Part shown: one piece after another, positions 15,462 through 38,742 of the stretch
Layout of the letters: every line of letters begins with the position of its first letter
Numbering within the stretch: the first letter of the stretch is position 1
Origin: a virus
Virus record (IMG/VR): IMGVR_UViG_3300042259_000159
Length of the DNA: 64,000 nt
Strand: one strand, 5' to 3'
The notes under the pieces: generated by a model
What the model saw: the letters and a program-made list of their open reading frames with translations, nothing else
Databases searched by the model: none
Told to the model about the DNA's origin: nothing
Made by a program: the position numbers and the translations under genes

Positions 15462-15470
15462 GGGGTAATT

Positions 15471-16064: not shown

Positions 16065-16069
16065 CTTTC

Positions 16070-16737: not shown

Positions 16738-16953
16738 CTAATATCAACACAACCCTTACATCATAATACTGGAAAAAGTGTCTGATAAGGCATGTTCTGT
16801 TAAAAAGAGCCTGCATACGGCCCATAGTGTGTGGGCATACACATAGTGTATATGCACACATTTGTGTGCACATCTTTCCGGTTGTGTTGTATGGGTGTTG
16901 CTATTTCTTGGTAGAAACGGCGAGAGGCGGTAAGGTTTCCCTACCGCCTCTTT

Positions 16954-19104: not shown

Positions 19105-19158
19105 TATCCCTCCACAAGTGAAAGGGGTTACATTGTAACCCCTTGGAATATAACAGAA

Positions 19159-19986: not shown

Positions 19987-20607
19987 ATCTTTCCTCCTTT
20001 TATCTAAAGCTTTAATATTTAAACTAACCAACTTAAAAATAGACTATACATATTTTCTAAGTATAAGTCAAGAGTTTATTTATTTTATTATTATTTATCT
20101 TAATATTTCATATCTCTACACCTGAAAGGGATTCGATGGGTTTGAAGAGGTTTGGATAGACCACCCCCTATATACCAAGTATTAATACTTAGCTAGAGGG
20201 TCTTTCTATCCATTGATTCGATTGGGAATCAGATGGTCATATCCACAGACTTGATTGCAATCCTTGATTATAATCAGTCGTACCTTTCTCAGTACGGGAT
20301 ATGGGGAGTATATACACGTTGTGCTAGACATATATACCCTACTGGAATCATAACGAAGGATAGCTCCTCCGGCAGCACCCACACCAGTATTAGACCTAGG
20401 CTCTTGCTTCGCTGCGTCCCTCAAGTAACAAGTTCACCACATTTTGCGGCTTATACCCTGCTGGCCCTTGTTGGGGGTCGTCACAACCAACAGGCAGGAG
20501 TCTTGACAAAAGACCTCCTGTCACATACAGTATATGAAAGTGGGCGAACCAAAATCTTTTTGCATGTGAAAAATAAATATACAACAGAGTTTTCAAAAAG
20601 TCAAGAC

Positions 20608-20635
20608 TTGACTTAAACAAAAAATAGTGTATAGT
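20608..20635 (+). promoter_or_regulatory. sigma70-type promoter (TTGACT-N16-TATAGT) embedded in inverted repeat AGTCAAGaCTTGACT
   Basis: Read directly; 30 nt upstream of the RBS of 20668..21051. Confidence 0.5.
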
Positions 20636-20667
20636 CTTAAGATAATCAAAAGGGAGGTAAAATATAC

Positions 20668-21051
20668 ATGAGAACACTGGATAAACAAATAGGCGGGAGT
20701 CATTATACAAAACAAAAAATACAACCAATACAGGGGTATGCGCTCATTGGAATTGAAAAGCAAGCCTTTATGTCAAACATTATCAAGTACATTACGAGGT
20801 TTAAAGACAAGAACGGTCTTCAGGATATCCAAAAAGCAGACGACTATCTTGACCTTATGAAGCTGGGATTTGAAGGTGGTCTTGAGACAGATATGCTAAG
20901 CCTTAGAGAGTATTGTGAAGCAAATAAATTTACAGAAGATCAAACCTCTGTGGTATGCCTCTCTTGGCTCTACATGTTGACAGGAAGAGATGAATACTAC
21001 ACCTATGCAAAGCAGAAGATAGCGAATATACTCAAGGGGTTGGAAGATTAA
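20668..21051 (+). CDS. DUF3310-like protein
   Basis: QIGGSHYTKQKIQPI...NIIKYITRFKDKNGLQDIQKADDYL resembles the DUF3310 signature. Confidence 0.5.
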   Translation: MRTLDKQIGGSHYTKQKIQPIQGYALIGIEKQAFMSNIIKYITRFKDKNGLQDIQKADDYLDLMKLGFEGGLETDMLSLREYCEANKFTEDQTSVVCLSWLYMLTGRDEYYTYAKQKIANILKGLED

Positions 21052-22685: not shown

Positions 22686-22698
22686 AAGGAGTAGTGAA

Positions 22699-25119: not shown

Positions 25120-25145
25120 AAACTTTTAGTAAAGAAGGAGAATGT

Positions 25146-25394
25146 ATGAATCTTTATGTAGTAGAAACACCTGTTATGCCTAAGAATGATTGGGATACCT
25201 ATCACAGAGCCTTTACGAGGGTAGAGGCTGTTGATCCCCTCCATGCGGTTAAGATAATTCTGTCTCAGCTTGACGATAAGGAAAAATACCGTGATTACAT
25301 TGTGAGCTGTGATGGTATGTGTGATGACAAGGGTGTTTCTTGTCAAACCCTTATTAGGGTTGATACAGCAGGAATTTCAACATATTATATTTAG
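25146..25394 (+). CDS. hypothetical protein
   Basis: ATG after AAGGAG. Confidence 0.45.
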   Translation: MNLYVVETPVMPKNDWDTYHRAFTRVEAVDPLHAVKIILSQLDDKEKYRDYIVSCDGMCDDKGVSCQTLIRVDTAGISTYYI

Positions 25395-25402
25395 GAAACA
25401 AT

Positions 25403-25753
25403 ATGAACATCTTTAACAAAACAGATAAAGAAACGGCAGACGACCCAGAAAACGAAGGCATGTTCTTTACCCTAGCCAAAAACTTTGATGATGACTTTGA
25501 TTCACAAGAACAAAAAGAAAAACATAGTGGGTGGGTAAAAATTGCGGTAGGGGAATTGGGGTGTAATGCCGTTCTTGATTATGAAAAAGGCATTTCAGAC
25601 TTTGCACTTGAAATGCTCAAAGAAGATATAAAGGATCAGAATGTTGATCTTGGAGAGGTTGGTGTGTACACGTTTAACATAAATGTGGACTGTGAATCAG
25701 ATTACTATGGTGACTATGATTGTTACCTTGAATATGAGAAAATTGAAGACTAA
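25403..25753 (+). CDS. hypothetical acidic protein
   Basis: ORF track; D/E-rich by eye. Confidence 0.45.
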   Translation: MNIFNKTDKETADDPENEGMFFTLAKNFDDDFDSQEQKEKHSGWVKIAVGELGCNAVLDYEKGISDFALEMLKEDIKDQNVDLGEVGVYTFNINVDCESDYYGDYDCYLEYEKIED

Positions 25754-25793
25754 ACACTACTGACCGAATTAAACAAAAAGGAGAGTTGATCAT

Positions 25794-26186
25794 ATGAATT
25801 ATAAAGAACACCTTATTGCAAACATGAAAGTTGCTGCCAACTCATTTAAAATGATGGTATTTCATGCCTTGCACGGTATCATTCCTTGCAAATACACAAG
25901 TCATGATTATTGGGCTGTCAACGACAATTCAAAGGATATCAAAACATCGGAGTTTATTCCCTGCAAAGAGCGATTGCCGGAAAACAAAGGATATTATTGG
26001 GCTACTGTTAAAGAATCGGGTAGCCCGTATAGTGAAACCGGCACTAGTTACTATATAGAAACAGTTTGGTACAGCCCTGAAAATGGAAATGGCTGGTACA
26101 TTGCGAATTGCCGCAAAGATAATCCTGATTGGACATTTGAAGTTACTGCGTGGATGGAACGCGCCAAGCCTTATAAAGGAGATTGA
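25794..26186 (+). CDS. DUF551-like protein
   Basis: The C-terminus WYIANCRKDNPDWTFEVTAWMERAKPYK resembles DUF551. The N-terminal HALHGIIPCKYTSH is shared with 58444..58596. Confidence 0.4.
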   Translation: MNYKEHLIANMKVAANSFKMMVFHALHGIIPCKYTSHDYWAVNDNSKDIKTSEFIPCKERLPENKGYYWATVKESGSPYSETGTSYYIETVWYSPENGNGWYIANCRKDNPDWTFEVTAWMERAKPYKGD

Positions 26187-26288
26187 TAGTGCCCAAGAAC
26201 TACATACCTGTTTGGACGGGTTGGGGAGGGCAAGCCCTACTTGTAGATAAAGCGTGAAACGCTTTGTTTCTAAAACCTATATTTTCTA

Positions 26289-26317
26289 TTGACAAAAGTG
26301 TTCGGTCTTGATAGGTT
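26289..26317 (+). promoter_or_regulatory. sigma70-type promoter (TTGACA-N17-TAGGTT, then GTATTTAAC)
   Basis: Same architecture at 32237 (+) and 56322 (-). Confidence 0.5.
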
Positions 26318-26357
26318 GTATTTAACGAAACAACATAAACAAACAAAAGGTTCAGAC

Positions 26358-26768
26358 ATGCGTAAAACTCTTTTTATTATTCGGGGTGCTTCCGGTTCCG
26401 GTAAAAGCACTCTTGCTGATGAGATTGATAACATTTTGCAGGTTTGGGAAGCAGATATGTATTTTACAGATGCCATTACTCAGGAATATAACTTCATCCC
26501 TAAACTCCTCCCGCTGGCTCATAAGTGGTGTCAAAATCAGATCCGTAAGTGTATGGAGCGCGGTGACAAGAGAATTGCTGTGGCAAATACCTTTACAAAA
26601 AACTGGGAAATGAAACCATATCTTGACATGTGTGAAGATTTTGGTTACACTCCTTTCGTAATTCGCTGTGAGAATGCTTTTGACAATATCCACGATGTAC
26701 CTGAAGATGTTGTCAAGAAACAACGCGAACGTTTTGAAGATTATGGAGTAACTAAAGATGTCTCGTAG
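26358..26768 (+). CDS. P-loop kinase-like protein (AAA_33-like)
   Basis: Walker A GASGSGKST at the N-terminus. Confidence 0.5.
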   Translation: MRKTLFIIRGASGSGKSTLADEIDNILQVWEADMYFTDAITQEYNFIPKLLPLAHKWCQNQIRKCMERGDKRIAVANTFTKNWEMKPYLDMCEDFGYTPFVIRCENAFDNIHDVPEDVVKKQRERFEDYGVTKDVS

Positions 26769-26988
26769 GGTATACACAAAAACTATCAAGACAGAAAAGG
26801 AAGTCGCATTTACCGAATTAACATGTGACGAGTGTGGCAGAAAAGAAGAAACAAGCGCAGACGAATTGTTCGGATGGGATGCTATGACGTATGGTGGTAA
26901 GGTATACGATATATGCCCCTCGTGTGCTGAGGCTTTGGCTACTATTGTACAATCTATGAAAATAGAAAAGCAAGAAAATCTATACTAA
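26758..26988 (+). CDS. Zn-ribbon protein
   Basis: CDECG...CPSC. Confidence 0.45.
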   Translation: MSRRVYTKTIKTEKEVAFTELTCDECGRKEETSADELFGWDAMTYGGKVYDICPSCAEALATIVQSMKIEKQENLY

Positions 26989-27011
26989 CCTGTTATAAGA
27001 AAAGGCTAACT

Positions 27012-27545
27012 TTGGACATCTTCTTTATAACTTTTATTCTGTGGTTTGGAGGGGAGACTATTCCCGATGATCTCCTGCACGATACAATCAGTGAGGTTGT
27101 CGATATTGTATGTTCTCAGCACCACATACCGGACAAGGAAAGTTTTAAAAGGCTTTTATATGAGACTGCTCAATATGAAAGTGAGGGTGGAATATATATA
27201 GAACAGCTTTCCGGAGGAGGAGCAAAAGGTATCTATCAGATAGAGCCTTTCACAGCGGAGTGCATAAAAAGCAATTGGATGAAATATAACGCTTCCAGCG
27301 GTGTTGAGACACTTTATAAAAATGCCTATGAAAGCGGCATGGGCTTGGAGTGGAATCTAGAGGTTAATCTGGGGTTTCAAACACTTATAGCCTCTTTGAT
27401 TTACATTTCAAGAATGAATAAAAAAGACCATGCCCTAATAAAAACCTTGACAGGAAGGGCAAAAGTGTATAAGAAGTATTTTAATACACCACTTGGAAAA
27501 GGAACAGTTCAAGGGTATATAACCAAAAACAAAAAGGAGAAATGA
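27012..27545 (+). CDS. lytic transglycosylase (SLT-like) with N-terminal hydrophobic segment
   Basis: YETAQYESEGG ... GAKGIYQIEP. TTG start as in the ORF track. Confidence 0.45.
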   Translation: MDIFFITFILWFGGETIPDDLLHDTISEVVDIVCSQHHIPDKESFKRLLYETAQYESEGGIYIEQLSGGGAKGIYQIEPFTAECIKSNWMKYNASSGVETLYKNAYESGMGLEWNLEVNLGFQTLIASLIYISRMNKKDHALIKTLTGRAKVYKKYFNTPLGKGTVQGYITKNKKEK

Positions 27546-27802
27546 TGAGTATTTACACACCGAAAGAGGTAGCAAATGTAGCAATGGATATCGTTCTGAA
27601 GGAGGGCATTGCACGTCTTGAGTATGATAAAGATTTTATCCGAAAGATTGAAAACACCCTTCAAGAAGCAGGGTACTTTAAGGTAAACATTACCGATGCA
27701 CAGAAGCGTCACATTGCAAAAGCAATGCTTAAGGATGTGACACGATGGCATGAAAGTCGCCGTAAATATATGGCAGAAAGCCGTGGACATAAGAACTGGT
27801 AA
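27542..27802 (+). CDS. hypothetical protein
   Basis: ORF track; ATGA overlap with the upstream gene. Confidence 0.45.
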   Translation: MMSIYTPKEVANVAMDIVLKEGIARLEYDKDFIRKIENTLQEAGYFKVNITDAQKRHIAKAMLKDVTRWHESRRKYMAESRGHKNW

Positions 27803-27852
27803 GTCTTAATTCCTCGACTGGCCAGTCCCATTCAGACGTTTAAGGAGTACAA

Positions 27853-28041
27853 ATGCTTGCTTTTTGTTCGCAAGACGAGTTTGATTTTTCAGAGGAAAAA
27901 CAGGAAAGACGTGTAAACCGTATGAAGAAGGGAAGTAAACGGCTTACTAAAGAAGATCGTAAGAAGATAGTTAAACAAAGGCGTATACTTAAGAACAAAG
28001 AGGGCTTCAGGGATGAAGAGCATGATGGTGAGTATATCTAG
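27853..28041 (+). CDS. hypothetical basic protein
   Basis: ORF track. Confidence 0.35.
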   Translation: MLAFCSQDEFDFSEEKQERRVNRMKKGSKRLTKEDRKKIVKQRRILKNKEGFRDEEHDGEYI

Positions 28042-28093
28042 CGCACCACACTCAAAATGCCTGAGAAAAAATAAGGAGAACACTGTGGAAAAG

Positions 28094-28573
28094 ATGAGTG
28101 AAAATATGAGCCTCTATGATTTTATTCTTGAGGATCTTGCAAAACTTAAAGGTACTACGAAATACGGGCACTACCGTCACAAAATGTTAAAGCTGCTTCC
28201 ACGTATAGGCTTTTTGGGTGATGCCGGTTACTACCCCTTTGGAGGATGTACTGTAGCACTTGAGTTCACTAATGTAGGTGTTGCTATAAAATACGGAGTA
28301 TGCAACGAGGTCGATCGCTTTGTTAAAAGCCTCGGAAGGGCTTGTGCAAGATCAAAAAAGCCCTCACAATTTTATCCGTATGAGAAACTTCTAGAAGACA
28401 TCCTTCAGGATGAAGAATGCCTTACGGATGACAGCCTTGCATGTAAGCTTGATATCGCACTGACAACCCTAGATACCTTTAGACGCATGATCATACAAAG
28501 AGCCTACCAGAAAGCCGAGGAAGGTCTTAAGAAGGCAGGATTTAAAGAGAAAACATTCTACATTCTGAAATAG
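28094..28573 (+). CDS. hypothetical protein, PFGGATV paralog family member 3
   Basis: YYPFGGCTVALEF...YGVCNEVDRFVKSLGRACA; start uncertain (28013-28106). Confidence 0.5.
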   Translation: MSENMSLYDFILEDLAKLKGTTKYGHYRHKMLKLLPRIGFLGDAGYYPFGGCTVALEFTNVGVAIKYGVCNEVDRFVKSLGRACARSKKPSQFYPYEKLLEDILQDEECLTDDSLACKLDIALTTLDTFRRMIIQRAYQKAEEGLKKAGFKEKTFYILK

Positions 28574-28647
28574 GCATTTATCACCTTGACAAGCATCTTA
28601 TCTTAGGATAGGGTGCTTTTATTATTTTCAATTACAAGGAGGATGCT

Positions 28648-30024
28648 ATGGAGATGTTTTTTAGCAACAAAGAGGTTATCAGGGCTTGGGAAAATGTTGT
28701 GAAAAAACTTAACGCCAGCGGTTTTAAAGGTGCCATTGTTGGCGGTGCAGTTAGGGATGTTTTTATGGGAAAGACTCCCACAGATATAGACATTGCTACA
28801 AATGCAACACCAGAGGAGGTTTGTAGCATCTTTAAAGGTGCTAAACTTGTTGGTGAAAGCTTTGGTGTTTGCCGTTGGAATGGCTATGAAATTGCTACTT
28901 ATCGAAACGATGTCCACAACGGTATTGGTGATACTTGTTGCACCGTGAGGTATACAGACGATCTCATTGAAGACCTTAGGCGTAGAGACTTCACAATGAA
29001 TGCTTGTGCATATGAGAGGCATCCTGACGGGACAACGCATTTTGTTATGGCACAGGCAGGTTGTCTGGATGACATCGAGAATAAGCGTCTTGATTTTGTA
29101 GGCAATGCTGAAGATAGAATCAGGGAAGATCCCAACCGCAGCTTCAGAGCATACCGCATGATTTGCAAAACAGGCTTTCTGCCGTCATATGCTACAGCAA
29201 AGATAATATACAACAGAGGTATTGTTGAAAAATATCTTCCGTACATTGCACCTGAGAGGATAGGTAAAGAGCTTATAAAATCTATGGAGGAGCCTTTCTC
29301 TTGGAATTTTTTTAGGTGTCTTTACAGGTCTGGTATTATGTACACTCTCATCCCTGAGATGGCACAGGCTTGGAATATTTGGGGAGGAAAATACCATGCA
29401 GAGTACGTTGGTGAACACCTTATGGCTGTTGGTATGGGTATCTCTGCAAAATTCCCCTTGCTGAGGCTTGCAGGGTATCTGCATGATGTTGGTAAGGGGG
29501 TAACACACGAGGATGGCAGCTTCATCCGGCATGAAAAAGAGGGCGTGCATATTGCGCGGAGGTTTCTTAAAAGCCTTAAGTTCTCTACAAAAGATACAGA
29601 GAAGGTTTGCAATATAATTCGTTGCCATATGCGTAGATTTGGTGAGAATGAAACGCCTGCTACAAACAGGCGAACCCTTGCATATCTTGCAAAACACAAT
29701 GTCTGCACATACGATTTCATCCGTTTGCGGATTGCGGATCACAACGGCAACTTTGCATGCAAGAAGATGAAATTCAGAGATATTAAGTCCCTTGTCAGAT
29801 GTTGGGACACCTATCAGTTTGAAAAACAAGCTGCCCATAGTAGGAAAATGCTTGCCATTAATGGCAGGGATATTATGAAAGAGTTTAATATCCCTCCGTC
29901 AAGACTTGTTGGGGAGATGATTGAATTTGCCCATAATATTGTTCTTGACAATGTTGATAAAAACGAATATAGTATCCTTATCAATGAAATTAAAAAGCGG
30001 TTCGGAGGTAGCAATGGCGAATGA
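28648..30024 (+). CDS. cca: tRNA nucleotidyltransferase (CCA-adding enzyme) with HD domain
   Basis: GAIVGGAVRDVFMGKTPTDIDIAT and GYLHDVGK; AAGGAGG RBS. Confidence 0.8.
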   Translation: MEMFFSNKEVIRAWENVVKKLNASGFKGAIVGGAVRDVFMGKTPTDIDIATNATPEEVCSIFKGAKLVGESFGVCRWNGYEIATYRNDVHNGIGDTCCTVRYTDDLIEDLRRRDFTMNACAYERHPDGTTHFVMAQAGCLDDIENKRLDFVGNAEDRIREDPNRSFRAYRMICKTGFLPSYATAKIIYNRGIVEKYLPYIAPERIGKELIKSMEEPFSWNFFRCLYRSGIMYTLIPEMAQAWNIWGGKYHAEYVGEHLMAVGMGISAKFPLLRLAGYLHDVGKGVTHEDGSFIRHEKEGVHIARRFLKSLKFSTKDTEKVCNIIRCHMRRFGENETPATNRRTLAYLAKHNVCTYDFIRLRIADHNGNFACKKMKFRDIKSLVRCWDTYQFEKQAAHSRKMLAINGRDIMKEFNIPPSRLVGEMIEFAHNIVLDNVDKNEYSILINEIKKRFGGSNGE

Positions 30025-30202
30025 ACTTAATCTAAGGCTTAAGCTTAACGATGTGGAGAGGGAGGCAGCCACCTACAGGGCGGTATGCAAGATGTTGTTT
30101 AATAGAATGTCTTCAGCAGGAGACCTTGCATTCATCCACAAAAAGGATCTTCAAAAAGCACTTGACAAATATAAGGAGGTATCACAAGATGCAAATATAT
30201 AA
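30014..30202 (+). CDS. hypothetical protein
   Basis: ATG at 30014 overlapping the cca 3' end. Confidence 0.4.
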   Translation: MANELNLRLKLNDVEREAATYRAVCKMLFNRMSSAGDLAFIHKKDLQKALDKYKEVSQDANI

Positions 30203-30608
30203 ACCGAGCCACTTCAGGATTGAAGAACTTGTTGACAAAAAAACTTTCAACGACAGAGGCGAGAAGGCTTGGCAACTTTTGGATGACAGGGCTTTGTTTG
30301 TTCTTCAGCTTCTCAGAAAGCGTTATGGACCCATTACAGTTAACAACTGGCTGTGGGGAGGGGACAGACAGTGGAGCGGCCTTAGAACAAAAGAGTGCAG
30401 TATTGGTGCAACATATTCTCAGCACAGGTTCGGAAGAGCCTTTGACTGTCTTATTAAAAACGCCACTGCCGAAGAAGTTAGAAAAGATATGCTTGACTTC
30501 TGGCCAAAACAGATGTATAACTTCCCTATCACGATGGAAGACGATGTAAGCTGGTTCCATTTTGATACGCGGCAACAGGAAAATCCAGTAACCATTTTTA
30601 AACCGTAA
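30189..30608 (+). CDS. peptidase M15 family cell-wall hydrolase (endolysin candidate)
   Basis: SQHRFGRAFD and WFHFD (H..D...H zinc ligand pattern); AAGGAGG RBS. Confidence 0.7.
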   Translation: MQIYKPSHFRIEELVDKKTFNDRGEKAWQLLDDRALFVLQLLRKRYGPITVNNWLWGGDRQWSGLRTKECSIGATYSQHRFGRAFDCLIKNATAEEVRKDMLDFWPKQMYNFPITMEDDVSWFHFDTRQQENPVTIFKP

Positions 30609-30874
30609 AGGCGAATATCTGCCTAGCGTAACTCATAGGATACATGGACTTCGCAAGTACAAGAATCAAATTAAAAAGGAACTTTAACTATGGATATAGC
30701 GGTATCACACAAGATACGACTGCCGTGGTTCCCCTCCAAATCCTTCTGTGCTAAATCTTAACGCCTGTGGACAGAATGACCTCTGTATCTACCAACCAAT
30801 GGAAGATATAAGTCAGCTGGTTGAAGCAGGAATTAAGTCCGGATTAATAGAAATTAATAGGAATTAAGGAGCAG

Positions 30875-31042
30875 ATGAATATGTTGATTACGAACAATAA
30901 AGAACACCTTCGCTCATACCATGATATCATGCGTCTTTGGAAGATTGGTATCTTCACAGACAAGGCAAAGGATAAGTATTTGAATAAGCTTTATATTCGT
31001 GCTATGCACGACGGTAGGGTTCTTACAGAAAAAGAACATTGA
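30875..31042 (+). CDS. hypothetical protein (55 aa)
   Basis: ATG after AAGGAG; below the ORF-track size cut-off. Confidence 0.35.
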   Translation: MNMLITNNKEHLRSYHDIMRLWKIGIFTDKAKDKYLNKLYIRAMHDGRVLTEKEH

Positions 31043-31051
31043 GGGATAGCA

Positions 31052-31393
31052 GTGGACAATGTACCTTTTCTTGACCTTAATAGGGTCTCTGTAAATATGC
31101 TTATCAAAGCACCTGAATTACTTGTTAAAACAGATGCACAGATACATTCCGTAAAACACATTATAGAGGATCTGAATCTAGATGCTGTTAAACTTGTAAA
31201 GATGGCCGTCCTTCTACGTACTCTTTTGAGGCAGAGGAGGTATTATAAAGAGATCACGGCCTTGCATAATTCAATGTGTGTTGATAGTGAAAGGGTACTG
31301 AACTGGAAAAAGAAAAGCGATAGGCGGTTGATGGGGTATAAAGATCAATCCGAGCAACAGCTTGAATACTATGAGAAGAAATACAATCTCTGA
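31052..31393 (+). CDS. hypothetical protein
   Basis: ORF track (GTG start). Confidence 0.4.
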   Translation: MDNVPFLDLNRVSVNMLIKAPELLVKTDAQIHSVKHIIEDLNLDAVKLVKMAVLLRTLLRQRRYYKEITALHNSMCVDSERVLNWKKKSDRRLMGYKDQSEQQLEYYEKKYNL

Positions 31394-31408
31394 TACAGGA
31401 GGAGAAAG

Positions 31409-31600
31409 ATGAAGATGGGTTTTATGACTATTCTGGGTCTTATCTTTATTACGCTGAAACTTACAGGGCATATCCTGTGGTCTTGGTGGTGGGTATTGGC
31501 ACCTTTCTGGGGTCCAGCAGTAATTGCACTGATTTGCTTGATTTGTTTTGTAGCAAGCAACCTGCTGTTTAATACGAACAAAGGCAAAAATAGACTTTAA
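31409..31600 (+). CDS. small membrane protein
   Basis: Two hydrophobic segments; W-rich WSWWWVLAPFW. Confidence 0.45.
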   Translation: MKMGFMTILGLIFITLKLTGHILWSWWWVLAPFWGPAVIALICLICFVASNLLFNTNKGKNRL

Positions 31601-31609
31601 GATTAATTT

Positions 31610-31647
31610 AAAAACCGCTTGACAAAATCAGGCGGTTTTTCTATTGT
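31610..31647 (+). promoter_or_regulatory. composite terminator hairpin / sigma70 promoter (AAAAACCGCttgacaaaatcagGCGGTTTTT; TTGACA-N17-TATTGT)
   Basis: The -35 hexamer lies in the loop of a U-tailed hairpin. Near-identical copy at 38080..38116. Confidence 0.55.
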
Positions 31648-31706
31648 GTTCCTACGGCAACGAGGAAAAGAACACAAATACGCAACAAACAAAAGGGGAA
31701 ATAAAG

Positions 31707-32058
31707 ATGAAATGGTTGGAACAGTTTGAACCTATCAGTAACACCACAAATGTAAAAGCAATTTATGAAGTTGCAGGTATCGTAGATGGTCTTGGGGGAT
31801 CTTTCTGACGAAACATTCAGTAGCTGGCAGGATGTTTTCAAGAAGTGCACGCCTCTTTATGCAGACTGCGTAGGAAGGAGTACATATCAGGTTGTCACCT
31901 ATCTTAGAGAAATTAATGAAATGACCTACCAAGAAGCTGTTTCCTACATGTTACAGGAGATGCTCCCTTTATTTGGAAAGCCCATCTTCTGGCACAGTAA
32001 ACATATACAGCTTTGGGATTATCTCTCAAAGCACGGTGTTAGTAAGAAGAAGGCGTAA
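31707..32058 (+). pseudogene. hypothetical gene split by a frameshift at a G5 run (31707..31805 plus 31786..32058)
   Basis: MKWLEQFEPISNTTNVKAIYEVAGIVDGLGGSF* and MVLGDLSDETF... become one ORF if the GGGGG at approx 31793-31797 changes length by 1 nt. Confidence 0.4.
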
Positions 32059-32236
32059 GGCTCCTATAGACTTTTCAAAGAACTAGTTGGGGCATCAACT
32101 AGTGGAGTAGGGCATGTCAGACTGGAGAAATCTAGCAATGCCTGTTGATACCAGAATCCCAAGAACTTTAGCCTTGGGAGTATGTCAAGGACAAGTTGTG
32201 AATCGATTTGTTTTTTACAAAAAACACAAATTTCTA

Positions 32237-32265
32237 TTGACAAAACTTCTTAGCTTGGATATGTT
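32237..32265 (+). promoter_or_regulatory. sigma70-type promoter (TTGACA-N17-TATGTT, then GTATTTAAC)
   Basis: Read directly. Confidence 0.5.
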
Positions 32266-32310
32266 GTATTTAACAAAAACATTTTTTACATCAGAAAAAG
32301 AGAGAAGATC

Positions 32311-32466
32311 ATGATGTATAAAGAAATGACAATCATGCAGTTTTTGGCAAAACTGGCAAATGCCTCTGGAGATGAGGCACTTGACCTTGTTGGGGAATGG
32401 CAATGTGGAGGTCTTGTTGTTGGTGGAATCAGTCTTGATGATGCTGAAGAATTTGAAGCTAAATAA
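32311..32466 (+). CDS. hypothetical protein (51 aa)
   Basis: ATG after AGAGAAG; below the ORF-track cut-off. Confidence 0.35.
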   Translation: MMYKEMTIMQFLAKLANASGDEALDLVGEWQCGGLVVGGISLDDAEEFEAK

Positions 32467-32493
32467 AACACATTTAATAAAAAAGGATTGACA

Positions 32494-32928
32494 ATGACCG
32501 AAAACAATTGTACAAAGTTTCTTGCACGTGAGAAGTACGAGGAAGCATGGATTTGCATGATAACAGCACTGGAACATATTGAGAGTGCAAAATACCTTAT
32601 CGGGCTTTGTAACAGTGTGCATGTCGGCGATGCAACCTATAACCTGAATCGTGCCACCGATGATATGCAAACGGCACACAGTTTCTACAAAGAATTCTTC
32701 GATACTCTGACGATTGGTTGTGATGACGAGGATGAACAAAATGTTTATCAAAGTGAGGAAGAAATTAACGAGGCACTGTGTGACCTAGACATAATGGGGA
32801 TAGACAGTAAAACTGTATGCATTTCTTGTTTTTATTGTGGGGGTATTTGCCCCAAAGACCCCGTTAGTTGCAATCAAGCAACACATTTTTATAAGTTCCT
32901 TCACAAGGATACAGGAGAGCGAGCATGA
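32494..32928 (+). CDS. hypothetical protein
   Basis: ATG at 32494 (the track begins at a TTG at 32488). Confidence 0.45.
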   Translation: MTENNCTKFLAREKYEEAWICMITALEHIESAKYLIGLCNSVHVGDATYNLNRATDDMQTAHSFYKEFFDTLTIGCDDEDEQNVYQSEEEINEALCDLDIMGIDSKTVCISCFYCGGICPKDPVSCNQATHFYKFLHKDTGERA

Positions 32929-33263
32929 ACAAGTGTCAAGAAGAAATCCTTACTTTTGTTGTTGGGGTGGTTGCGGAGATGGAGCGTGAAACAGGAGCGG
33001 ATATTTTTGTAAGTTACTCTCCCCACGTGTCTTGCATCAATGTTAATTTCCACGCTAATAAGTGGATAAGTGGACATGGATCAGATTTTGATGTGGTGTT
33101 TTATCTTGATTCTGAAGAGTATGATGATATAGCTGAAAGTTTCCTGTCTCTGGAGAATGCTAGGGATTTGATTGAAAAGCATCAACAAGATACCCTGCTT
33201 AGAAAGCAAAAAGCCATTAAGGAACTTGAAGAGCAGCTTAAACGCCTGAAAGAAGAGCAGTAA
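32925..33263 (+). CDS. hypothetical protein
   Basis: ATGA overlap with the upstream gene; followed by a strong terminator. Confidence 0.45.
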   Translation: MNKCQEEILTFVVGVVAEMERETGADIFVSYSPHVSCINVNFHANKWISGHGSDFDVVFYLDSEEYDDIAESFLSLENARDLIEKHQQDTLLRKQKAIKELEEQLKRLKEEQ

Positions 33264-33270
33264 GTATTGA

Positions 33271-33295
33271 GGCCGGAAATAATCCGGCCTTTTTT
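33271..33295 (+). terminator. rho-independent terminator
   Basis: GGCCGGAaataaTCCGGCC followed by TTTTTT. Confidence 0.75.
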
Positions 33296-33377
33296 ACGTC
33301 TAAATCCAGAGGACTTTTTCATTTTAAAAGGTCTAGAGAGGTTTTTCATTTTGGGAGGTCTAAAGAACATTTTCAAT
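33288..33377 (+). repeat. 90-bp direct repeat, copy 1 (identical copy at 37862..37951)
   Basis: CCTTTTTTACGTCTAAATCCAGAGGACTTTTTCATTTTAAAAGGTCTAGAGAGGTTTTTCATTTTGGGAGGTCTAAAGAACATTTTCAAT is present at both sites. Confidence 0.9.
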
Positions 33378-33443
33378 TTACAACCAAAAGTAAAAAGTCT
33401 AGAGAACATTTTTAATTTGAGGTCTAAAGAGGATTTTCATTTT
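33297..33443 (+). repeat. array of five approx 23-bp iterons (G)GTCTA(A/G)AGA-N4-6-TTTT(C/A)ATTT
   Basis: Units start at approx 33297, 33330, 33357, 33397 and 33421. Confidence 0.7.
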
Positions 33444-33456
33444 CAGATTTTTGTAT

Positions 33457-33558
33457 GAAAATGATACTCATTATCACCGATAATGGTCGTTGAAAACGAC
33501 ATTCATTATCAACGATATTGATAATCATTTTCAATGATATTGAGTTTCATTATCAATC
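33457..33558. promoter_or_regulatory. cluster of Fur-box-like sites
   Basis: GAAAATGATACTCATTATC (33457-33475) matches GATAATGATAATCATTATC at 17/19. TGATAATCATTTTCA (33519-33533) matches the 7-1-7 TGATAATNATTATCA at 14/15. Additional CATTATCAA half-sites are present. Confidence 0.4.
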
Positions 33559-33828
33559 TAAATAGTAACTATTACTAATAATAAAAATTGTGCAGGGGCG
33601 GTTTATAATGGATCTTAACCATGTGCCGGAATGCCTTTGATTTTTTCCTCGCTGGCAAAGACAGAATATTAAAAATGCAAACGGCGGTCAAGCGGAAAAT
33701 GAAAAAATATTAAAAATATTTTTTCGGCTTGCCATATCATTATATAGACGCTATATCCATCCCATACCACAGACAATGAATGGAACGCGGAGGAATGGAG
33801 TTTTTATTAAAAATCGTCTGAAAAACAC

Positions 33829-33857
33829 TTGACAGTGATTCCGCTTTGTGTTTAGTT
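33829..33857 (+). promoter_or_regulatory. sigma70-type promoter (TTGACA-N17-TTAGTT)
   Basis: Read directly; precedes 33894..34043. Confidence 0.4.
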
Positions 33858-33893
33858 TTTCACCTACAAGAACACAAAAAAGAGGTAAAGAAA

Positions 33894-34043
33894 ATGCCAA
33901 CCATGTATCAATTTGCTAGTGCAACGCCCTACATCATTATTATTGTATCCATGCTGATCTGTGTCGGGATCGGATCAACCCTTTCCAGTAAAAAAGATAG
34001 TAAGCACGCTTGGAACACAACATACAACGGTAAAAATATCTAG
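33894..34043 (+). CDS. small membrane protein (49 aa)
   Basis: ATG after AGAGGT; hydrophobic YIIIIVSMLICVGIG. Confidence 0.4.
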   Translation: MPTMYQFASATPYIIIIVSMLICVGIGSTLSSKKDSKHAWNTTYNGKNI

Positions 34044-34053
34044 GAGGCTAAAA

Positions 34054-34236
34054 ATGTCTGATTTTCTTACTCTTTTCAAGAGCATTGCGGCGGAGGTACT
34101 GGCCGAAGAGGAAACATCCCGCGCAGCTGCTACTACACTTGACGCTTGGCAATGGGCAACGGATGAAACGGACGGATTGCCCGAACAGGTATGCAAACAT
34201 ATAGGTCTGTGGGAGGAACAGGAAAATGAAAGATAA
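34054..34236 (+). CDS. hypothetical acidic protein
   Basis: ATG after TAGGAGG. Confidence 0.45.
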   Translation: MSDFLTLFKSIAAEVLAEEETSRAAATTLDAWQWATDETDGLPEQVCKHIGLWEEQENER

Positions 34237-34327
34237 GCAGGTTTTGATTGATCTTGTCACGGCTTGCGGATACATTTGCATTCTTTTTGCTATCCTTTAT
34301 ATATGCCTTTTTATACATGCAGCCTAG
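34226..34327 (+). CDS. small membrane peptide (33 aa)
   Basis: ATG after GGAGGAACAGG; CGYICILFAILYICLFI. Confidence 0.3.
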   Translation: MKDKQVLIDLVTACGYICILFAILYICLFIHAA

Positions 34328-34341
34328 TCGGGAGGTGTGAA

Positions 34342-34572
34342 ATGCTTTTTTCAGATTTTTGTAGGGCGCTCCAGTGCACGCCGCTTGCCGGTATCCGGAT
34401 TATTGAGGAGTGGGCAGAAAAGCACAGTACAGTCACCTGTAAAAATATTGTACCGTTCCGGCCTTGGCGGGCTGGACAAATATATGTTAATGAATTGTGC
34501 CCTGAAATATTTGACACCGTATATAAATGGTTTATCGGCAGGGGGGTAGTAAATAATGAAGACAAAGAGTGA
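34342..34572 (+). CDS. hypothetical protein
   Basis: ATG after GGGAGG. Confidence 0.45.
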   Translation: MLFSDFCRALQCTPLAGIRIIEEWAEKHSTVTCKNIVPFRPWRAGQIYVNELCPEIFDTVYKWFIGRGVVNNEDKE

Positions 34573-34843
34573 AAAAGATTTTTTCATGAAAAACTTTTGT
34601 TCCTATGGTTTTACACGCAAAAGCGTTTTGGCACTATATGACGCTGTACAGGAGTGGGAAGGCAAAGAACAGGATACATACAATTTAGACGGTATACACG
34701 GCTACATACAGGAATGGCTTGCAATTAATCCGCCGGAGGTATTAGCATGCAAAATAACGTTACGCCGTGCCCGTGCCGATGATATTAACGCCGATCCAGA
34801 ACAAATAACACTGTGGAGGAGGAATGCCGGTAAAAATACTTAA
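34556..34843 (+). CDS. hypothetical protein
   Basis: ORF track. Confidence 0.45.
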   Translation: MKTKSEKDFFMKNFCSYGFTRKSVLALYDAVQEWEGKEQDTYNLDGIHGYIQEWLAINPPEVLACKITLRRARADDINADPEQITLWRRNAGKNT

Positions 34844-35174
34844 AAATTGCATGGATGGATATAAAGATGCTATATTTTTTACCGAGGAGGATAAAAACGG
34901 CTGGACAGGAAACGAAACATTTAGTATGGAAGCGGAGGAGGTGATTTTCAAAGACTGCTCGCACTTTGTGGATACCATTATAGGCTATTTACCTATTGAT
35001 TTTTGTGAATATGATCAACTAGGCTTTGATTTTTGGCTTACACGCAACGGGCAAAACGCTTTTGCAAAGCGTATAATGCTTTACAATGGTGCAGCAAAAA
35101 TACTAACACAGGTATCTGAAGTTTTTGGCACTGTTTATGCCTACGCTGAAAATGATGAAATATTTTTGAAATAA
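34824..35174 (+). CDS. hypothetical protein
   Basis: ORF track. Confidence 0.45.
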   Translation: MPVKILKNCMDGYKDAIFFTEEDKNGWTGNETFSMEAEEVIFKDCSHFVDTIIGYLPIDFCEYDQLGFDFWLTRNGQNAFAKRIMLYNGAAKILTQVSEVFGTVYAYAENDEIFLK

Positions 35175-35177
35175 CGC

Positions 35178-35206
35178 TTGACAATGCTAAAAGTACAGAT
35201 TAGAAC
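35178..35206 (+). promoter_or_regulatory. sigma70-type promoter (TTGACA-N17-TAGAAC)
   Basis: Read directly. Confidence 0.4.
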
Positions 35207-35232
35207 AAGACAAACAACAGCAAAAAAGGAGC

Positions 35233-35829
35233 ATGGAAATGAAAATTATCGAAGCTTTTGAAATGTGGGAAAATGAAGTGCAGCCCTTCATCGTTGAAAA
35301 ATACGGTGAAAATGACTTTCCGGCACTTGCGGAAAGCTGGAATGACTTCACAGACATTCTTTGCAAGGACGGAGAATTGACGTCCTTGCAGTATCACTAT
35401 GCACCGGCATATGATGAAGGTATGCCCGACGATGATCTGGAGTACATCCTTGACCAGCTTGGCATTGAGTTCCATTGCGAGACCATACCTGCACGTACAG
35501 ACGGGCTTATGTCTGATATGCCTGCCGGTACGCGGCACTTTGAGTGCACATTCTATCAGGGCAACACTCCGGCTCTTGTTGTGCAGTACTCGCAAGGTCC
35601 TGCACACATGGGCATGCCCACTCGCGAGGAGGTTTTGCAAAGCATCATGCAAGATATCGCCTATGCCGATTACGATTTTGAGGAGTTTTGCAACGAAATG
35701 GGCTACGATACTGACAGCAGGACGGCAGAAAGTATCTATAATGCAGTAGTGGAACAAAACGAAATTGTCCAAGCCATGTTTACGGCGGATGAAATTGCCG
35801 ATCTTCAGCAGCTTTTTTACGATTTTTAA
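35233..35829 (+). CDS. hypothetical strongly acidic protein
   Basis: 198 aa, D/E-rich by eye; own promoter. Confidence 0.5.
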   Translation: MEMKIIEAFEMWENEVQPFIVEKYGENDFPALAESWNDFTDILCKDGELTSLQYHYAPAYDEGMPDDDLEYILDQLGIEFHCETIPARTDGLMSDMPAGTRHFECTFYQGNTPALVVQYSQGPAHMGMPTREEVLQSIMQDIAYADYDFEEFCNEMGYDTDSRTAESIYNAVVEQNEIVQAMFTADEIADLQQLFYDF

Positions 35830-35839
35830 CGAATAGTGC

Positions 35840-35868
35840 TTGACAGGTGCTGTATTAACCTATAATAC
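35840..35868 (+). promoter_or_regulatory. sigma70-type promoter (TTGACA ... TATAAT) overlapping inverted repeat CTGTATTAacctaTAATACAG
   Basis: Read directly. Confidence 0.55.
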
Positions 35869-35907
35869 AGTACCTACTCAACCACTATTAAAAACGGAGT
35901 AAAAGCC

Positions 35908-36492
35908 ATGCGTGAAATTATTACGAAAATTTACCGCTTTGAGGAATTGTCTGAAAAATCCCAAGCCCGTGCACTTGAAAAATATCGTGACATTTTTGTG
36001 TCTGATAGCCTTTGGTATGAGGATTTGCTTGAGGAATACAAGGCATGCCTCGAAAAATGTGGGTTCTATGATGCAGAAATACTTTTTTCTGGCTTTTTCT
36101 CGCAAGGGGATGGAGCCTGTTTTGACGCACAACACATTGACGTTGCGGAAGTGCTCAATGCAATAATTATGACTGATCAGGCATGCATTGACCGCGAATT
36201 TATCCGCTTTTACACACTGGCGAATCATGATGCAATCGAGTGCGACATTCTTCAGCGGTCATCCCTTTATGTTCATGAGCATACCAGATACATAGGCGCG
36301 GATAGCCCGTTTTTGACTGAAATGGAAACAAAACGCCTTGAGGAAATTATTGAAAATTTTCGCCTTGATCTGTGCTATACCATATACAACCGCCTTGAGG
36401 CGGAGTATCAATATCAGACCAGTGATGAAGTTTTGCGTGAGTTTTTCATTGATATGGAATGCGAGTTCTATGAAAGCGGGAAGATGGTATAA
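35908..36492 (+). CDS. hypothetical acidic protein
   Basis: ORF track; FSGFFSQGDGACFD motif, family not identified. Confidence 0.5.
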   Translation: MREIITKIYRFEELSEKSQARALEKYRDIFVSDSLWYEDLLEEYKACLEKCGFYDAEILFSGFFSQGDGACFDAQHIDVAEVLNAIIMTDQACIDREFIRFYTLANHDAIECDILQRSSLYVHEHTRYIGADSPFLTEMETKRLEEIIENFRLDLCYTIYNRLEAEYQYQTSDEVLREFFIDMECEFYESGKMV

Positions 36493-36552
36493 CTATCAAA
36501 AATAGTTAGCAATGTTTGAGAGGAAAGAAAAATAATTTTTTATAAAAACCGC

Positions 36553-36581
36553 TTGACAGGTGTAGGGCATATTTGTATGGT
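36553..36581 (+). promoter_or_regulatory. sigma70-type promoter (TTGACA-N17-TATGGT) overlapping inverted repeat GTAGGGCA...TGCCCTAC
   Basis: Read directly. Confidence 0.5.
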
Positions 36582-36614
36582 TGCCCTACAGACAACAAAA
36601 AAGGACGGTTAAAA

Positions 36615-36890
36615 ATGACAAAGCTTGAAAAACAGAACGCTAAAAAATGGGATGAAATTTGCAACCTCCTCCGCGCCCACGGCTATGAAATGGACCGTTA
36701 TGGCAATATGGTCAAGGGCGAAAAGGGTAGTGCCGTGAGATATAAGAAGATGGCTCGCAATGTGCGCAAAGAGCGTGATTTTTATACGGAAGGGTATGAC
36801 GGGAAAATGGAAAGGCTTTGGCGTAAAGTGTGGTCCATACCGCTTAAGCAGCTTGCCATTGTGGATGGAAAAATAACAAAAAATAAGTGA
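36615..36890 (+). CDS. hypothetical basic protein
   Basis: ATG after AAGGACGG. Confidence 0.45.
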   Translation: MTKLEKQNAKKWDEICNLLRAHGYEMDRYGNMVKGEKGSAVRYKKMARNVRKERDFYTEGYDGKMERLWRKVWSIPLKQLAIVDGKITKNK

Positions 36891-36978
36891 TTTGGTGCAT
36901 TGCGGGGAATCCTGAAAATAATCCTGACAGGATTCCCTGCCCCAGCGTGTCAAAAAACAAAACAGATTGGAGGATACA

Positions 36979-37206
36979 ATGATAGATGAAAATATCCGCT
37001 TCATTAGCATAGAACACGATTATCAGAATAGTGCGGTTCGAAGCTGGTTTAATGTTGACGGTCAGGATTGGTGTATTCACCTTTCCACTATGACAGGGGA
37101 GCGAACTATGCTTGACAGTGAGGGCTATCCAGTTTATCCGCGCAATAGACGTGAAGATGCTATCTGGCGTAGGCTTTTGCAACACGTATATAGGGAGCAG
37201 GTATGA
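36979..37206 (+). CDS. hypothetical protein
   Basis: ATG after GGAGGA. Confidence 0.45.
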   Translation: MIDENIRFISIEHDYQNSAVRSWFNVDGQDWCIHLSTMTGERTMLDSEGYPVYPRNRREDAIWRRLLQHVYREQV

Positions 37207-37460
37207 AAAATATAAAAGCAGTGGATAGAAAAAAGGACCTTTCCACAGGAACCATTGAGTTGATTCATTGGTTTCAGGATCAAGCGCACTGGCAAAAGGA
37301 TCCGTGTTTCAATAGGATGTGCATTCATGTCGCTGATTGCCTTGAGTGTGGGACAATTACACCGATGGAGGGTTATGATATACAGGCATATGTACATCTA
37401 TACGGATTATTCCCGGAGTGGCCGAAGGCGCGGGCGTCAAACTACTCACATACCATCTAG
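37203..37460 (+). CDS. hypothetical protein
   Basis: ATGA overlap with the upstream gene. Confidence 0.45.
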   Translation: MKNIKAVDRKKDLSTGTIELIHWFQDQAHWQKDPCFNRMCIHVADCLECGTITPMEGYDIQAYVHLYGLFPEWPKARASNYSHTI

Positions 37461-37478
37461 TACACCAAGGAGCATATT

Positions 37479-37808
37479 ATGACCACAGTGAAAAGATTAC
37501 AGAAGCTGGTTGAAGACATTGCAAGAGACATTGAAAACGGCGTAATTGATTGCGAACCCGTGGACGGTGAAGAGCCTACGGCATTTGATTACCTACAAAA
37601 CGCACTTGCTATTGAGTACATTGTCAGCAGCAGGAAAGAATATCTTGGCGCACGCATCATGGTTGCATGTGGCGGACCTGATATCTGGATTAATACACGC
37701 ACAAACACTGTGGAAGGCTACTGGGGCTCTAATGCAGCCGTGGCCATGGCCTCGGCATTGTTCCGCCGTCACGGAAAAGCGCTGGAGGAATTATACTTGT
37801 GTAGTTAG
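37479..37808 (+). CDS. hypothetical protein
   Basis: ATG after AAGGAG. Confidence 0.45.
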   Translation: MTTVKRLQKLVEDIARDIENGVIDCEPVDGEEPTAFDYLQNALAIEYIVSSRKEYLGARIMVACGGPDIWINTRTNTVEGYWGSNAAVAMASALFRRHGKALEELYLCS

Positions 37809-37861
37809 GGGCTACGTTAAAATTAGCAAAAACTTCAAAAAAGGCGTTGACAAGGTTGACG

Positions 37862-37951
37862 CCTTTTTTACGTCTAAATCCAGAGGACTTTTTCATTTTA
37901 AAAGGTCTAGAGAGGTTTTTCATTTTGGGAGGTCTAAAGAACATTTTCAAT
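37862..37951 (+). repeat. 90-bp direct repeat, copy 2
   Basis: See 33288..33377; it also follows a terminator hairpin. Confidence 0.9.
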
Positions 37952-38087
37952 CCGATGCAGCCTTTGCCGCGTATAGCCGTGACCGCATTGGTTTGGATGG
38001 AGAACTGGAGGGATTGTATGCGTGTAAGCCTCCGCTAACACACATAAGGCTGCTTACAGTAAAAATAGAAAAACTATTCAAAACCGC

Positions 38088-38116
38088 TTGACAAAACCGG
38101 GCGGTTCTTCTATTGT
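38088..38116 (+). promoter_or_regulatory. composite hairpin / sigma70 promoter, second copy (AAACCGCttgacaaaaccgGGCGGTT; TTGACA-N17-TATTGT)
   Basis: About 45 nt near-identical to 31610..31655. Confidence 0.55.
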
Positions 38117-38157
38117 GTTCCTAACGAACACAAACACTCAACAAAGAGAGGTAAAGA

Positions 38158-38502
38158 ATGTTTCCTATCAAGATGAATGTCAAGCATTTTTATGCCGCCA
38201 GAAAAGCGTTCCTGCATGCATTTATGCGCCACAACAACCCCGACAGTATATTCGACGAGACAGATTGCGCGATCAATGCCGTAAATCGTGAAAGAATCTA
38301 TAAAAAAAGAGAAAAGGACGCGTTTGTTGTTGGATTTCTTGCGTTTTTGTCTGATATTGACAATATCAAAGAGCTGTACAGACAGCACGGGGAAGATGCT
38401 GTTATGAAGACTTGGCTAGTAGACAAAAAACTGGTGCTTACCGGTGACGAAGATATGATAGACGATGTTCTGTATAGGGTAGGGCTCAAGGTAGCTAAAT
38501 AA
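38158..38502 (+). CDS. hypothetical protein
   Basis: ATG after AGAGAGG. Confidence 0.45.
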   Translation: MFPIKMNVKHFYAARKAFLHAFMRHNNPDSIFDETDCAINAVNRERIYKKREKDAFVVGFLAFLSDIDNIKELYRQHGEDAVMKTWLVDKKLVLTGDEDMIDDVLYRVGLKVAK

Positions 38503-38742
38503 TCAAAAAACCTCAAAACAACATAAATAACAGGAGCACACTATAACTGACCGCACATTCTTTATCCACCTTATATCCGGCCACGTTGCTACGCTCGAAG
38601 AGTGGAGGGCAGACTATAAGTCAATGGATGCAGAACTATGGCACGGCAAGCCCGCTGAAGAGTGCAACCCTGATGAATGGCTTAAAGACGGCCTCCTTGA
38701 GGAATATGAAGCGGATCCCAACGAATAAAGCAGTTACACCAC

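Follow-up and report, generated by a model that had tools for sequence, protein, structure and literature searches.

Fourteen small genes of a large uncultured phage: a candidate anti-defence or establishment block and a protein family shared with plasmids

Most new anti-defence and host-takeover proteins come from phage blocks of small unknown genes. One such block is described here in a 64,000-nt stretch of DNA (IMG/VR record IMGVR_UViG_3300042259_000159; hereafter "the window"), which is part of a large uncultured phage of virulent type. The block comprises 14 plus-strand genes (g1-g14) spanning 33894-38728. What it adds is one protein family, that of g8, which links the small-gene arrays of unrelated large phages to plasmid clusters carrying ArdC, SSB and ParB genes. 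The main value of the locus thus lies in g8, and secondarily in g7, as well-defined and testable candidates, while the block itself is ordinary for its kind.

Gene content, conservation and transcription signals of the block

An earlier note on this DNA, made from the letters and an open reading frame (ORF) listing, had counted about 17 small ORFs at 33829-38730. The ORF listing combined with a ribosome-binding-site screen yields 14 genes instead, and the gene calls of the public source contigs contain the identical 14. The size range of 33-198 amino acids (aa) given in that note was correct, the products being 33-196 aa long (g7 reaches 198 aa when started at 35233). The left part of the block holds g1 (33894-34043; 49 aa, one predicted membrane helix), g2 (34054-34236; 60 aa, acidic, with an isoelectric point (pI) of 4.1, and the gene behind the garbled entry "34054..36" of the note), g3 (34226-34327; 33 aa, its C-terminal half hydrophobic), g4 (34342-34572; 76 aa), g5 (34556-34843; 95 aa) and g6 (34824-35174; 116 aa, or 107 aa from 34851, acidic). 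These are followed by g7 (35239-35829; 196 aa), g8 (35908-36492; 194 aa), g9 (36615-36890; 91 aa, basic, pI 9.9), g10 (36979-37206; 75 aa), g11 (37203-37460; 85 aa, with the cysteine pattern C-x4-C-x6-C-x2-C) and g12 (37479-37808; 109 aa, pI 4.8). The right end carries g13 (38158-38502; 114 aa, or 109 aa from 38173) and the very acidic g14 (38624-38728; 34 aa).

Three short contigs with 86-91% DNA identity to the window (L086, L087 and L088) served as relatives for comparison. Across the 11 comparable genes (g1-g3 and g5-g12), the ratio of non-synonymous to synonymous substitution rates (dN/dS) ranges from 0.03 to 0.37 with zero frameshifts or stops (for example, g1 0.07, g2 0.37, g3 0.03, g5 0.10, g6 0.14, g9 0.11, g10 0.15, g11 0.30 and g12 0.15). 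These are real genes under purifying selection, including the 49-aa g1 and the 33-aa g3, and the dN/dS values rule out the ORFs as chance products. For g4, a 75-aa homologue is called in L087. Apart from such conservation, the relatives differ by whole genes. Between g8 and the promoter at 36553, two further small genes are present in both L086 and L088, and L086 has an additional, intact 74-aa gene between g9 and g10, of which comparison reveals a remnant in the window (36887-36982, plus strand). With three whole genes inserted or deleted inside 1.5 kb between sequences that are about 88% identical, the block qualifies as hyperplastic, and gene gain and loss of this type is as expected for an accessory, conflict-type region.

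The block had also been described as often acidic and as more GC-rich than its neighbours. A pI below 5 is found for six of the 14 products (g2, g6, g7, g8, g12 and g14), and g7 (net charge -34) and g8 (net charge -22) are the only outstandingly acidic ones, but as a whole the block is no different from the other small ORFs of a crude whole-window gene call (Mann-Whitney P = 0.52). Acidic small proteins are also encoded upstream of the block, for example at 25403-25753 and 32494-33263. Likewise, the GC difference is only marginal (0.429 for the block against 0.424 across the window and 0.40-0.41 in the coding blocks that flank it). A block of unusual acidity or GC content was therefore rejected on these whole-window comparisons.

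Promoter boxes are enriched in the region. The hexamer TTGACA occurs nine times on its plus strand against about 2.5 expected (P ~0.001), and six of these copies fall within just 931 intergenic bases. The extended pattern CGCTTGACA-N17-TAnnnT is found eight times in the window against 0.27 expected, and an A/T-rich stretch precedes each TTGACA box. Five TTGACA-N17 promoters had been proposed (33829, 35178, 35840, 36553 and 38088); all five hexamers are present, whereas their -10 elements are weak and the site at 35840 is doubtful as a promoter. The -35 boxes at 33829, 35178 and 36553 are retained in the relatives while the spacers have diverged. The first of these (33829-33876, upstream of g1) combines its TTGACA with a weak -10 and the palindrome TGTGTT..AACACA, and its -35 is kept in L087. 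The second (35178-35206; TTGACA-N17-TAGAAC) begins 3 nt past the stop codon of g6, and its hexamer is invariant in L087 and L088 despite divergence of the spacer and the untranslated leader. The third (36553-36581; TTGACA-N17-TATGGT) lies upstream of g9, and L086 keeps its TTGACA, the 17-nt spacing and the -10 (TAAGTT; TAnGnT) in spite of a different upstream gene.

The site upstream of g13 (38080-38132) presents the TTGACA at 38088 within a 9-bp hairpin (z-score -5.2), followed by TATTGT and the palindrome TGTGTTC..GAACACA. It has a paralogue at 31610-31676 (TTGACA at 31619; 91% identity over 47 nt), and as both elements place the hexamer inside a stable terminator-like hairpin ahead of TATTGT, they appear to be compact combined terminator-promoter modules. 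The palindrome TGTGTT..AACACA has only three sites in the window (0.2 expected), located beside the promoters at 31619, 33829 and 38088. The three inverted repeats reported to overlap promoters (35840, 36553 and 38088) all exist, although the 8-bp repeat at 36553 is lost in L086.

The repeat at 35840 belongs to a hairpin between g7 and g8 (35832-35889, plus strand) with an interrupted 26-bp stem (-27.5 kcal/mol, z-score -8.4), which contains the TTGACA together with a TATAAT. Over the four aligned sequences (window, L086, L087 and L088) the hairpin shows 96% identity, above that of the flanking genes, while the hexamer itself has become TTGACG in L086 and L087; two of three in-pair substitutions retain pairing, only as G-U. 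On the weak evidence of this single diverged lineage, the element is more likely to act at the RNA level, processing or stabilising the transcript between g7 and g8, than as a promoter. An intrinsic terminator was rejected for this hairpin, as the stem is followed by AAAAACGGAG with no T run, and the element is absent from the terminator scan. Also rejected was an Frpo promoter. An Frpo promoter has its -35 and -10 together on a single arm of a long, imperfect stem; it precedes a leading-region gene, and the DNA carrying it enters as a single strand (PMC11541004). Here, the 5' arm carries the -35, the TATAAT falls within the loop and 3' arm, and the element belongs to a phage.

Three strong intrinsic terminators on the plus strand delimit the block: one ends the upstream unit (33269-33296; -17.6 kcal/mol, z-score -4.5, followed by a T run), one follows g12 (37837-37869; -17.3 kcal/mol, z-score -4.5, followed by TTTTTT), and the third, found in the terminator scan, closes g13-g14 and the whole plus-strand gene block (38891-38925). 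They divide the genes into two units, g1-g12 and g13-g14. Judging from the sequence, a host sigma-70-type RNA polymerase would read the first unit from 33829 through g12, using 35178 and 36553 as internal promoters, up to the terminator at 37837, and the second from 38088 through g13 and g14 to the terminator at 38891.

The g8 and g7 protein families

The block is a small-gene array without enzyme signatures, as the earlier note had observed. Pfam returned zero matches for all 14 proteins, as did NCBIfam and PADLOC for the subsets searched, and the only library matches are to three PHROG families annotated as "unknown function". These are phrog_5162 for g8 (E 2.3e-34, profile positions 3-196 of 201), phrog_4273 for g7 (E 6.4e-26, profile positions 13-150 of 150) and phrog_1915 for g6 (E 3.5e-6, profile positions 7-136 of 141). 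Membership in phrog_5162, phrog_4273 (with phrog_336) and phrog_1915 names these proteins without supplying a mechanism, and a literature search on the three families and on the plasmid gene cluster described below turned up nothing specific to them. In the loci examined, the remaining eleven proteins (among them g2 and g13, for which no family was matched) have no relatives beyond their own phage lineage. Single-sequence and profile searches of PDB sequences with g6, g7, g8, g9, g12 and g13 gave noise only.

The g8 family is large, with more than 6,500 sequence clusters (6563 proteins in a profile search) and at least 587 confirmed IMG/VR matches in a scan for its motif GFxSQGDGA. Among GenBank phages it occurs in rV5-like phages, jumbo phages of the PBECO4/RaK2/GAP32 type, Acinetobacter Saclayvirus and Campylobacter phages; in Caulobacter jumbo phages the homologues sit in the terminal repeats, and in several phages they lie near DNA methyltransferases. 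The structural model of g8 has a predicted local distance difference test (pLDDT) score of 94 and places the invariant motifs GFxSQGDGA and YxH on loops of two neighbouring beta-hairpins, with G62, F63, Q66, G67, D68, G69 and A70 invariant on one loop and Y121 and H123 on the other. Since these invariant polar loops (SGFxSQGDGA and YxHE) neighbour each other in the model, they suggest a ligand-binding or catalytic pocket rather than DNA mimicry. Domain fusions that might inform on function were sought with Pfam in all 34 members of the g8 alignment, and none was found. One homologue, in Acinetobacter phage CP14 (L005, OP585105.1), is labelled "RNA polymerase binding protein". This label was rejected as mis-transferred because the tiny ORFs around it are given T4 gene names that follow the order in T4; in this annotation the names sliding clamp, clamp loader, RegA and DNA polymerase are attached to ORFs of 140-280 nt.

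Furthermore, the g8 family is present on 94 PLSDB plasmids, mostly alphaproteobacterial. In four independent alphaproteobacterial plasmids or integrative elements, the homologue has a fixed place in a conserved array together with ArdC (ArdcN plus metallopeptidase), DUF2958, a 710-aa ParB-N protein, a strawberry-notch-type helicase, a Toprim protein, DUF2493/YAcAr and SSB. The array of the conjugative MOBP/MPF_T plasmid pOT1-7 adds DUF932 and two RadC genes. It is for g8 only, and in these four elements, that a block gene is associated elsewhere with known anti-defence genes. The same repertoire (ArdC, SSB, ParB-N, RadC and DUF932) characterises anti-defence leading regions, whose gene sets are enriched for anti-defence functions (PMC11541004), and ArdC works against restriction inside the recipient cell (PMC7213743). 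Such a repertoire has also been reported for establishment functions in general (PMC5512222).

The g7 protein combines an N-terminal helical module (phrog_336-like) with a widespread core domain (phrog_4273), and its model has a pLDDT of 96. A full HMMER scan recovered 9957 cluster representatives, most of which contain the core only (profile positions ~70-201). Full-length relatives are found in Burkholderia phage AH2, the Xylella phages Salvo and Sano, and Xanthomonas phage FoX4, and none in plasmids. In AH2 the homologue is the first gene of a small-gene operon at a divergent junction near the genome end, and in metagenomic phages it lies either in long one-directional small-gene arrays or past a divergent junction ahead of a primase-polymerase gene. 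Its structural neighbours in BFVD are all uncharacterised, and Pfam searches of 10 long relatives revealed no informative domain fusion. The g7 core and g8 families occur on the same strand within 8 kb of each other in five independent lineages (L005, L007, L012, L063 and L093), and this distribution suggests that both are drawn from a common pool of circulating accessory genes.

With 41 aspartate and glutamate residues against 7 lysine and arginine residues (21% and 3.6%, respectively) and a pI of 4.05, g7 is extremely acidic and almost devoid of lysine and arginine, for which reason it may act as a nucleic-acid decoy. Its composition is typical of the small, very acidic and lysine/arginine-poor DNA mimics Ocr and ArdA, and g8, at net -22, is also strongly negative. 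Nevertheless, no relation to these mimics in fold or sequence was detected. The structure comparison that had been suggested as a check for Ocr/ArdA-like folds found no PDB fold matching either high-confidence model, and g7 and g8 are thus neither Ocr- nor ArdA-like.

The plasmid homologues of g8 are named "antitoxin of toxin-antitoxin stability system" by NCBI, a name for which no supporting Pfam or NCBIfam model was found. It is possible, though the chances are rather against it, that the g8 family is instead an unrecognised and very widespread establishment or anti-defence factor of new fold that has been mislabelled, with g7 as a second, phage-only partner in the same arrays. Such a factor would use the conserved polar pocket, perhaps to sequester or destroy a defence signal or to block a nuclease. 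If g8 is a true establishment factor, this would bear on the choice of therapeutic phages and on plasmid spread, and would correct a widely propagated annotation. Knock-outs are feasible in E. coli phages that can be cultured (rV5-like and PBECO4-like) and in plasmids of Paracoccus and the Roseobacter group, as these carry homologues.

Possible roles of the block and alternative explanations

A slight balance of probability favours reading the block as the hyperplastic accessory end of the rightward gene block, expressing anti-defence or establishment products from host-type promoters. The earlier note had proposed an early region for host takeover or anti-defence; the small genes, the promoter-like sites, the gene flux and the plasmid synteny of g8 agree with that proposal, whereas a known anti-defence family is missing from the block. 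An anti-defence or takeover role is accordingly plausible, with support from association only. Soon after DNA entry, the 14 small products would most likely bind host or phage macromolecules, and g8, as the best candidate, would neutralise a host response that phage and plasmid DNA both meet on entry. The presence of g7 and g8 homologues in equivalent early-type small-gene arrays of unrelated phages supports this reading.

Hyperplastic or host-takeover regions of small genes include the early regions of T4, the pre-early region of T5 and the terminal-redundancy module of SPO1. The present block resembles them in its small and mostly orphan genes, in having several sigma-70-type promoters of its own and in its high gene flux, and the occurrence of g8 homologues in the terminal repeats of Caulobacter jumbo phages is a further likeness. 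Several host-type promoters ahead of small genes, as in an early module, are evident from the TTGACA enrichment and the three conserved -35 boxes. In contrast to those regions, the -10 elements are weak and the block follows replication genes rather than lying at the genome end. A second comparison is with the anti-defence islands of plasmid leading regions (Samuel et al., 2024; PMC11541004). Shared with these are co-oriented small genes, many of them uncharacterised, gene content that varies between relatives, several internal promoters, and the company of ArdC, SSB, ParB-N, RadC and DUF932 in which the g8 family is found. The block differs in carrying no recognised Acr, Ard, KlcA, PsiB or Ocr, in belonging to a virulent-type double-stranded DNA phage, and in that its hairpin at 35840 does not follow the Frpo layout.

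Several points weigh against an early anti-defence role. No known anti-defence, takeover or defence-related family was recognised among the block proteins in scans with 24,736 Pfam, 18,950 NCBIfam and 38,880 PHROG models, a set that holds no dedicated anti-defence library, and the models of g7 and g8 are unmatched by any solved fold. At the resolution of pairwise comparison, the low dN/dS values (0.03-0.37) carry no arms-race signal. The plasmid cluster of g8 is a putative leading region, and since genes for helicase, primase and SSB are also part of its synteny, a function of g8 in DNA metabolism is conceivable instead. Use of the block promoters by a host polymerase is an assumption. Finally, the block follows replication genes, its -10 hexamers match the consensus at no more than four of six positions, and the strongest consensus promoters lie elsewhere (39443, 39928, 60461, 60640, 61773 and 62052); given these weak -10 elements and the placement of the strong promoters, the block could be a middle rather than an early region.

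These last points lead to the main rival explanation, in which the block consists of replication-phase (middle) accessory genes at the tail of a DNA-metabolism operon, tuning replication, recombination or DNA modification. The genes share their strand with the block encoding primase-helicase, PolA and the CCA-adding enzyme and come immediately downstream of it, and their promoters, with a perfect -35 and a weak -10, are unlike the consensus promoters at 39.4-39.9 and 60.4-62.1 kb. The helicase, Toprim protein and SSB beside the plasmid homologues of g8, the DNA methyltransferases near its homologues in several phages, and the purifying selection on all compared genes are likewise compatible with a middle role. 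However, whole-gene gain and loss between close relatives is unusual for core replication helpers, signatures of nucleic-acid enzymes or DNA binding are lacking among the block proteins, and the g7 and g8 homologues also occur in terminal repeats and in arrays far from replication genes. A middle role is considered rather unlikely, though more probable than the other alternatives.

Another explanation regards g1-g12 as a recombination-delimited cassette of 4.6 kb, which could be excised, duplicated or exchanged as a unit through direct repeats at its two ends, and sees in this the chief importance of the locus. Two iteron arrays bracket these genes. The first (33287-33444) contains four copies of GGTCTARAGAnnnTTTTnAWTT spaced 25-39 nt start to start, and the second (37861-37952) is the other copy of a 91-bp direct repeat built of ~27-nt repeats, 33287-33377 being 100% identical to 37861-37951. 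This exactness stands out against the 9-14% by which the relatives differ elsewhere, and the repeat unit is restricted to the two arrays, which hold all six of its matches in the window (0.05 expected). Both 91-bp copies come after a terminator (33269 and 37837), the first beginning inside the 3' stem of the terminator. The internal periodicity, on the other hand, fits protein-binding sites at least equally well, and the arrays are probably binding sites for a phage regulator that could serve as recombination substrates too. Furthermore, the long contigs are all identical to the window, and no genome was found from which the block is missing or in which it has another location. A cassette of this kind, improbable as it is, would in any case be compatible with the anti-defence or establishment reading.

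A second repeat family was observed in non-coding DNA on either side of the block (33456-33564 and 39124-39380). It comprises direct and inverted A/T-rich repeats of 28-30 nt (GAAAAYGAYAnTCATTATCAAYGATATT) and looks origin-like or operator-like.

The least probable alternative makes g8 an orphan antitoxin that neutralises toxins of host or rival toxin-antitoxin or abortive-infection systems: many homologues bear the antitoxin name in their sources, orphan antitoxins have been proposed for leading regions (PMC11541004), a RES-Xre pair adjoins the homologue in pOT1-7, and in the alphaproteobacterial elements L089-L091 and L097 a conserved 138-aa gene overlaps the start of the homologue by 8 nt as in a two-gene cassette. 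Against this, the name is backed by no model, neither an adjacent toxin gene nor an antitoxin-type DNA-binding or neutralising domain, as type II antitoxins would have, was recognised for g8, and its fold is unmatched. Typical type II antitoxins also differ from g8, with its ~200 aa and invariant polar site. The 138-aa partner has no Pfam match or toxin domain, and occurs neither in the window nor in any of the phage loci. As a separate candidate, a relationship of this partner to g7 was rejected at an hhalign probability of 0.1%.

The surrounding window

The same sequence is present on contigs of 70 and 91.6 kb from the Joint Genome Institute (JGI) and IMG/VR, and near-identical DNA was not found among GenBank phages or PLSDB plasmids. 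The plus-strand gene block extends over ~20.2-39 kb and carries replication and nucleotide genes, directly followed by the small genes. Upstream of the latter lie a DnaB-type helicase with a Toprim domain (21051-22685), a family A DNA polymerase (PolA; 22534-25119) with ~39% identity to those of the Vibrio phages PWH3a-P1 and ICP1, the CCA-adding enzyme (28648-30024) and a lysin-like protein (30051-30608), all on the plus strand. A minus-strand block (61.7-40.4 kb) encodes several DNA methyltransferases, DNA ligase, an intein-containing anaerobic ribonucleotide reductase, a thymidylate-synthase-like protein, tRNAs and TnpB. The related minus-strand small-gene region that had been pointed out, with two consensus promoters (60640 and 60461), is real.

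Further promoter-like and non-coding features were noted outside the small-gene block. A distinct promoter class at 26289 and 32237 (plus strand) and 56322 (minus strand) consists of TTGACA-N17-TAKGTT followed by the conserved box GTATTTARCGAA, and may represent a separate temporal class. The 1.2 kb at 38930-40200 is devoid of a convincing gene and of any Rfam match, and contains a convergent pair of near-perfect consensus promoters, both with an extended -10 element (39443, plus; 39928, minus). Low-complexity runs rich in TATATA and direct repeats such as GGAATAGCCTATTCC are further features of this stretch, which could harbour a transcription-activated origin or specify non-coding RNAs.

The first 8 kb of the window hold a cluster (1024-7815, minus strand) of an amidoligase, a COOH-NH2 ligase, two glutamine amidotransferases and an ATP-grasp-like protein. 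Together with the thymidylate-synthase-like gene (52662-53279, minus strand), the cluster resembles a pathway for the hypermodification of DNA bases. The minus strand carries at least three DNA methyltransferase genes (40415-41116, 42593-43417, and 60714-61193 with 61256-61420), the last being a Dam-like enzyme apparently split into two ORFs, with the N-terminal part at ~61256-61420 and the DPPY part at 60714-61193. The anaerobic ribonucleotide reductase NrdD (1123 aa; 48849-52220, minus strand) is interrupted by its intein and accompanied by an activase (52144-52659), a pair that suggests an anaerobic host.

Mobile or intervening elements are also present. Near the right end of the window are two group I introns (Rfam RF00028, 76-77 bits) at 63359-63571 and 63728-63997 on the plus strand. 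The TnpB gene (IS605 OrfB; 56728-57846, minus strand) is flanked by two copies of a tRNA-Leu(taa)/tRNA-Leu(tag) pair (55123-55314 and 58023-58202), and a 28-nt stretch overlapping its 3' end (56717-56744) is exactly repeated, in inverted orientation, at 30610-30637.

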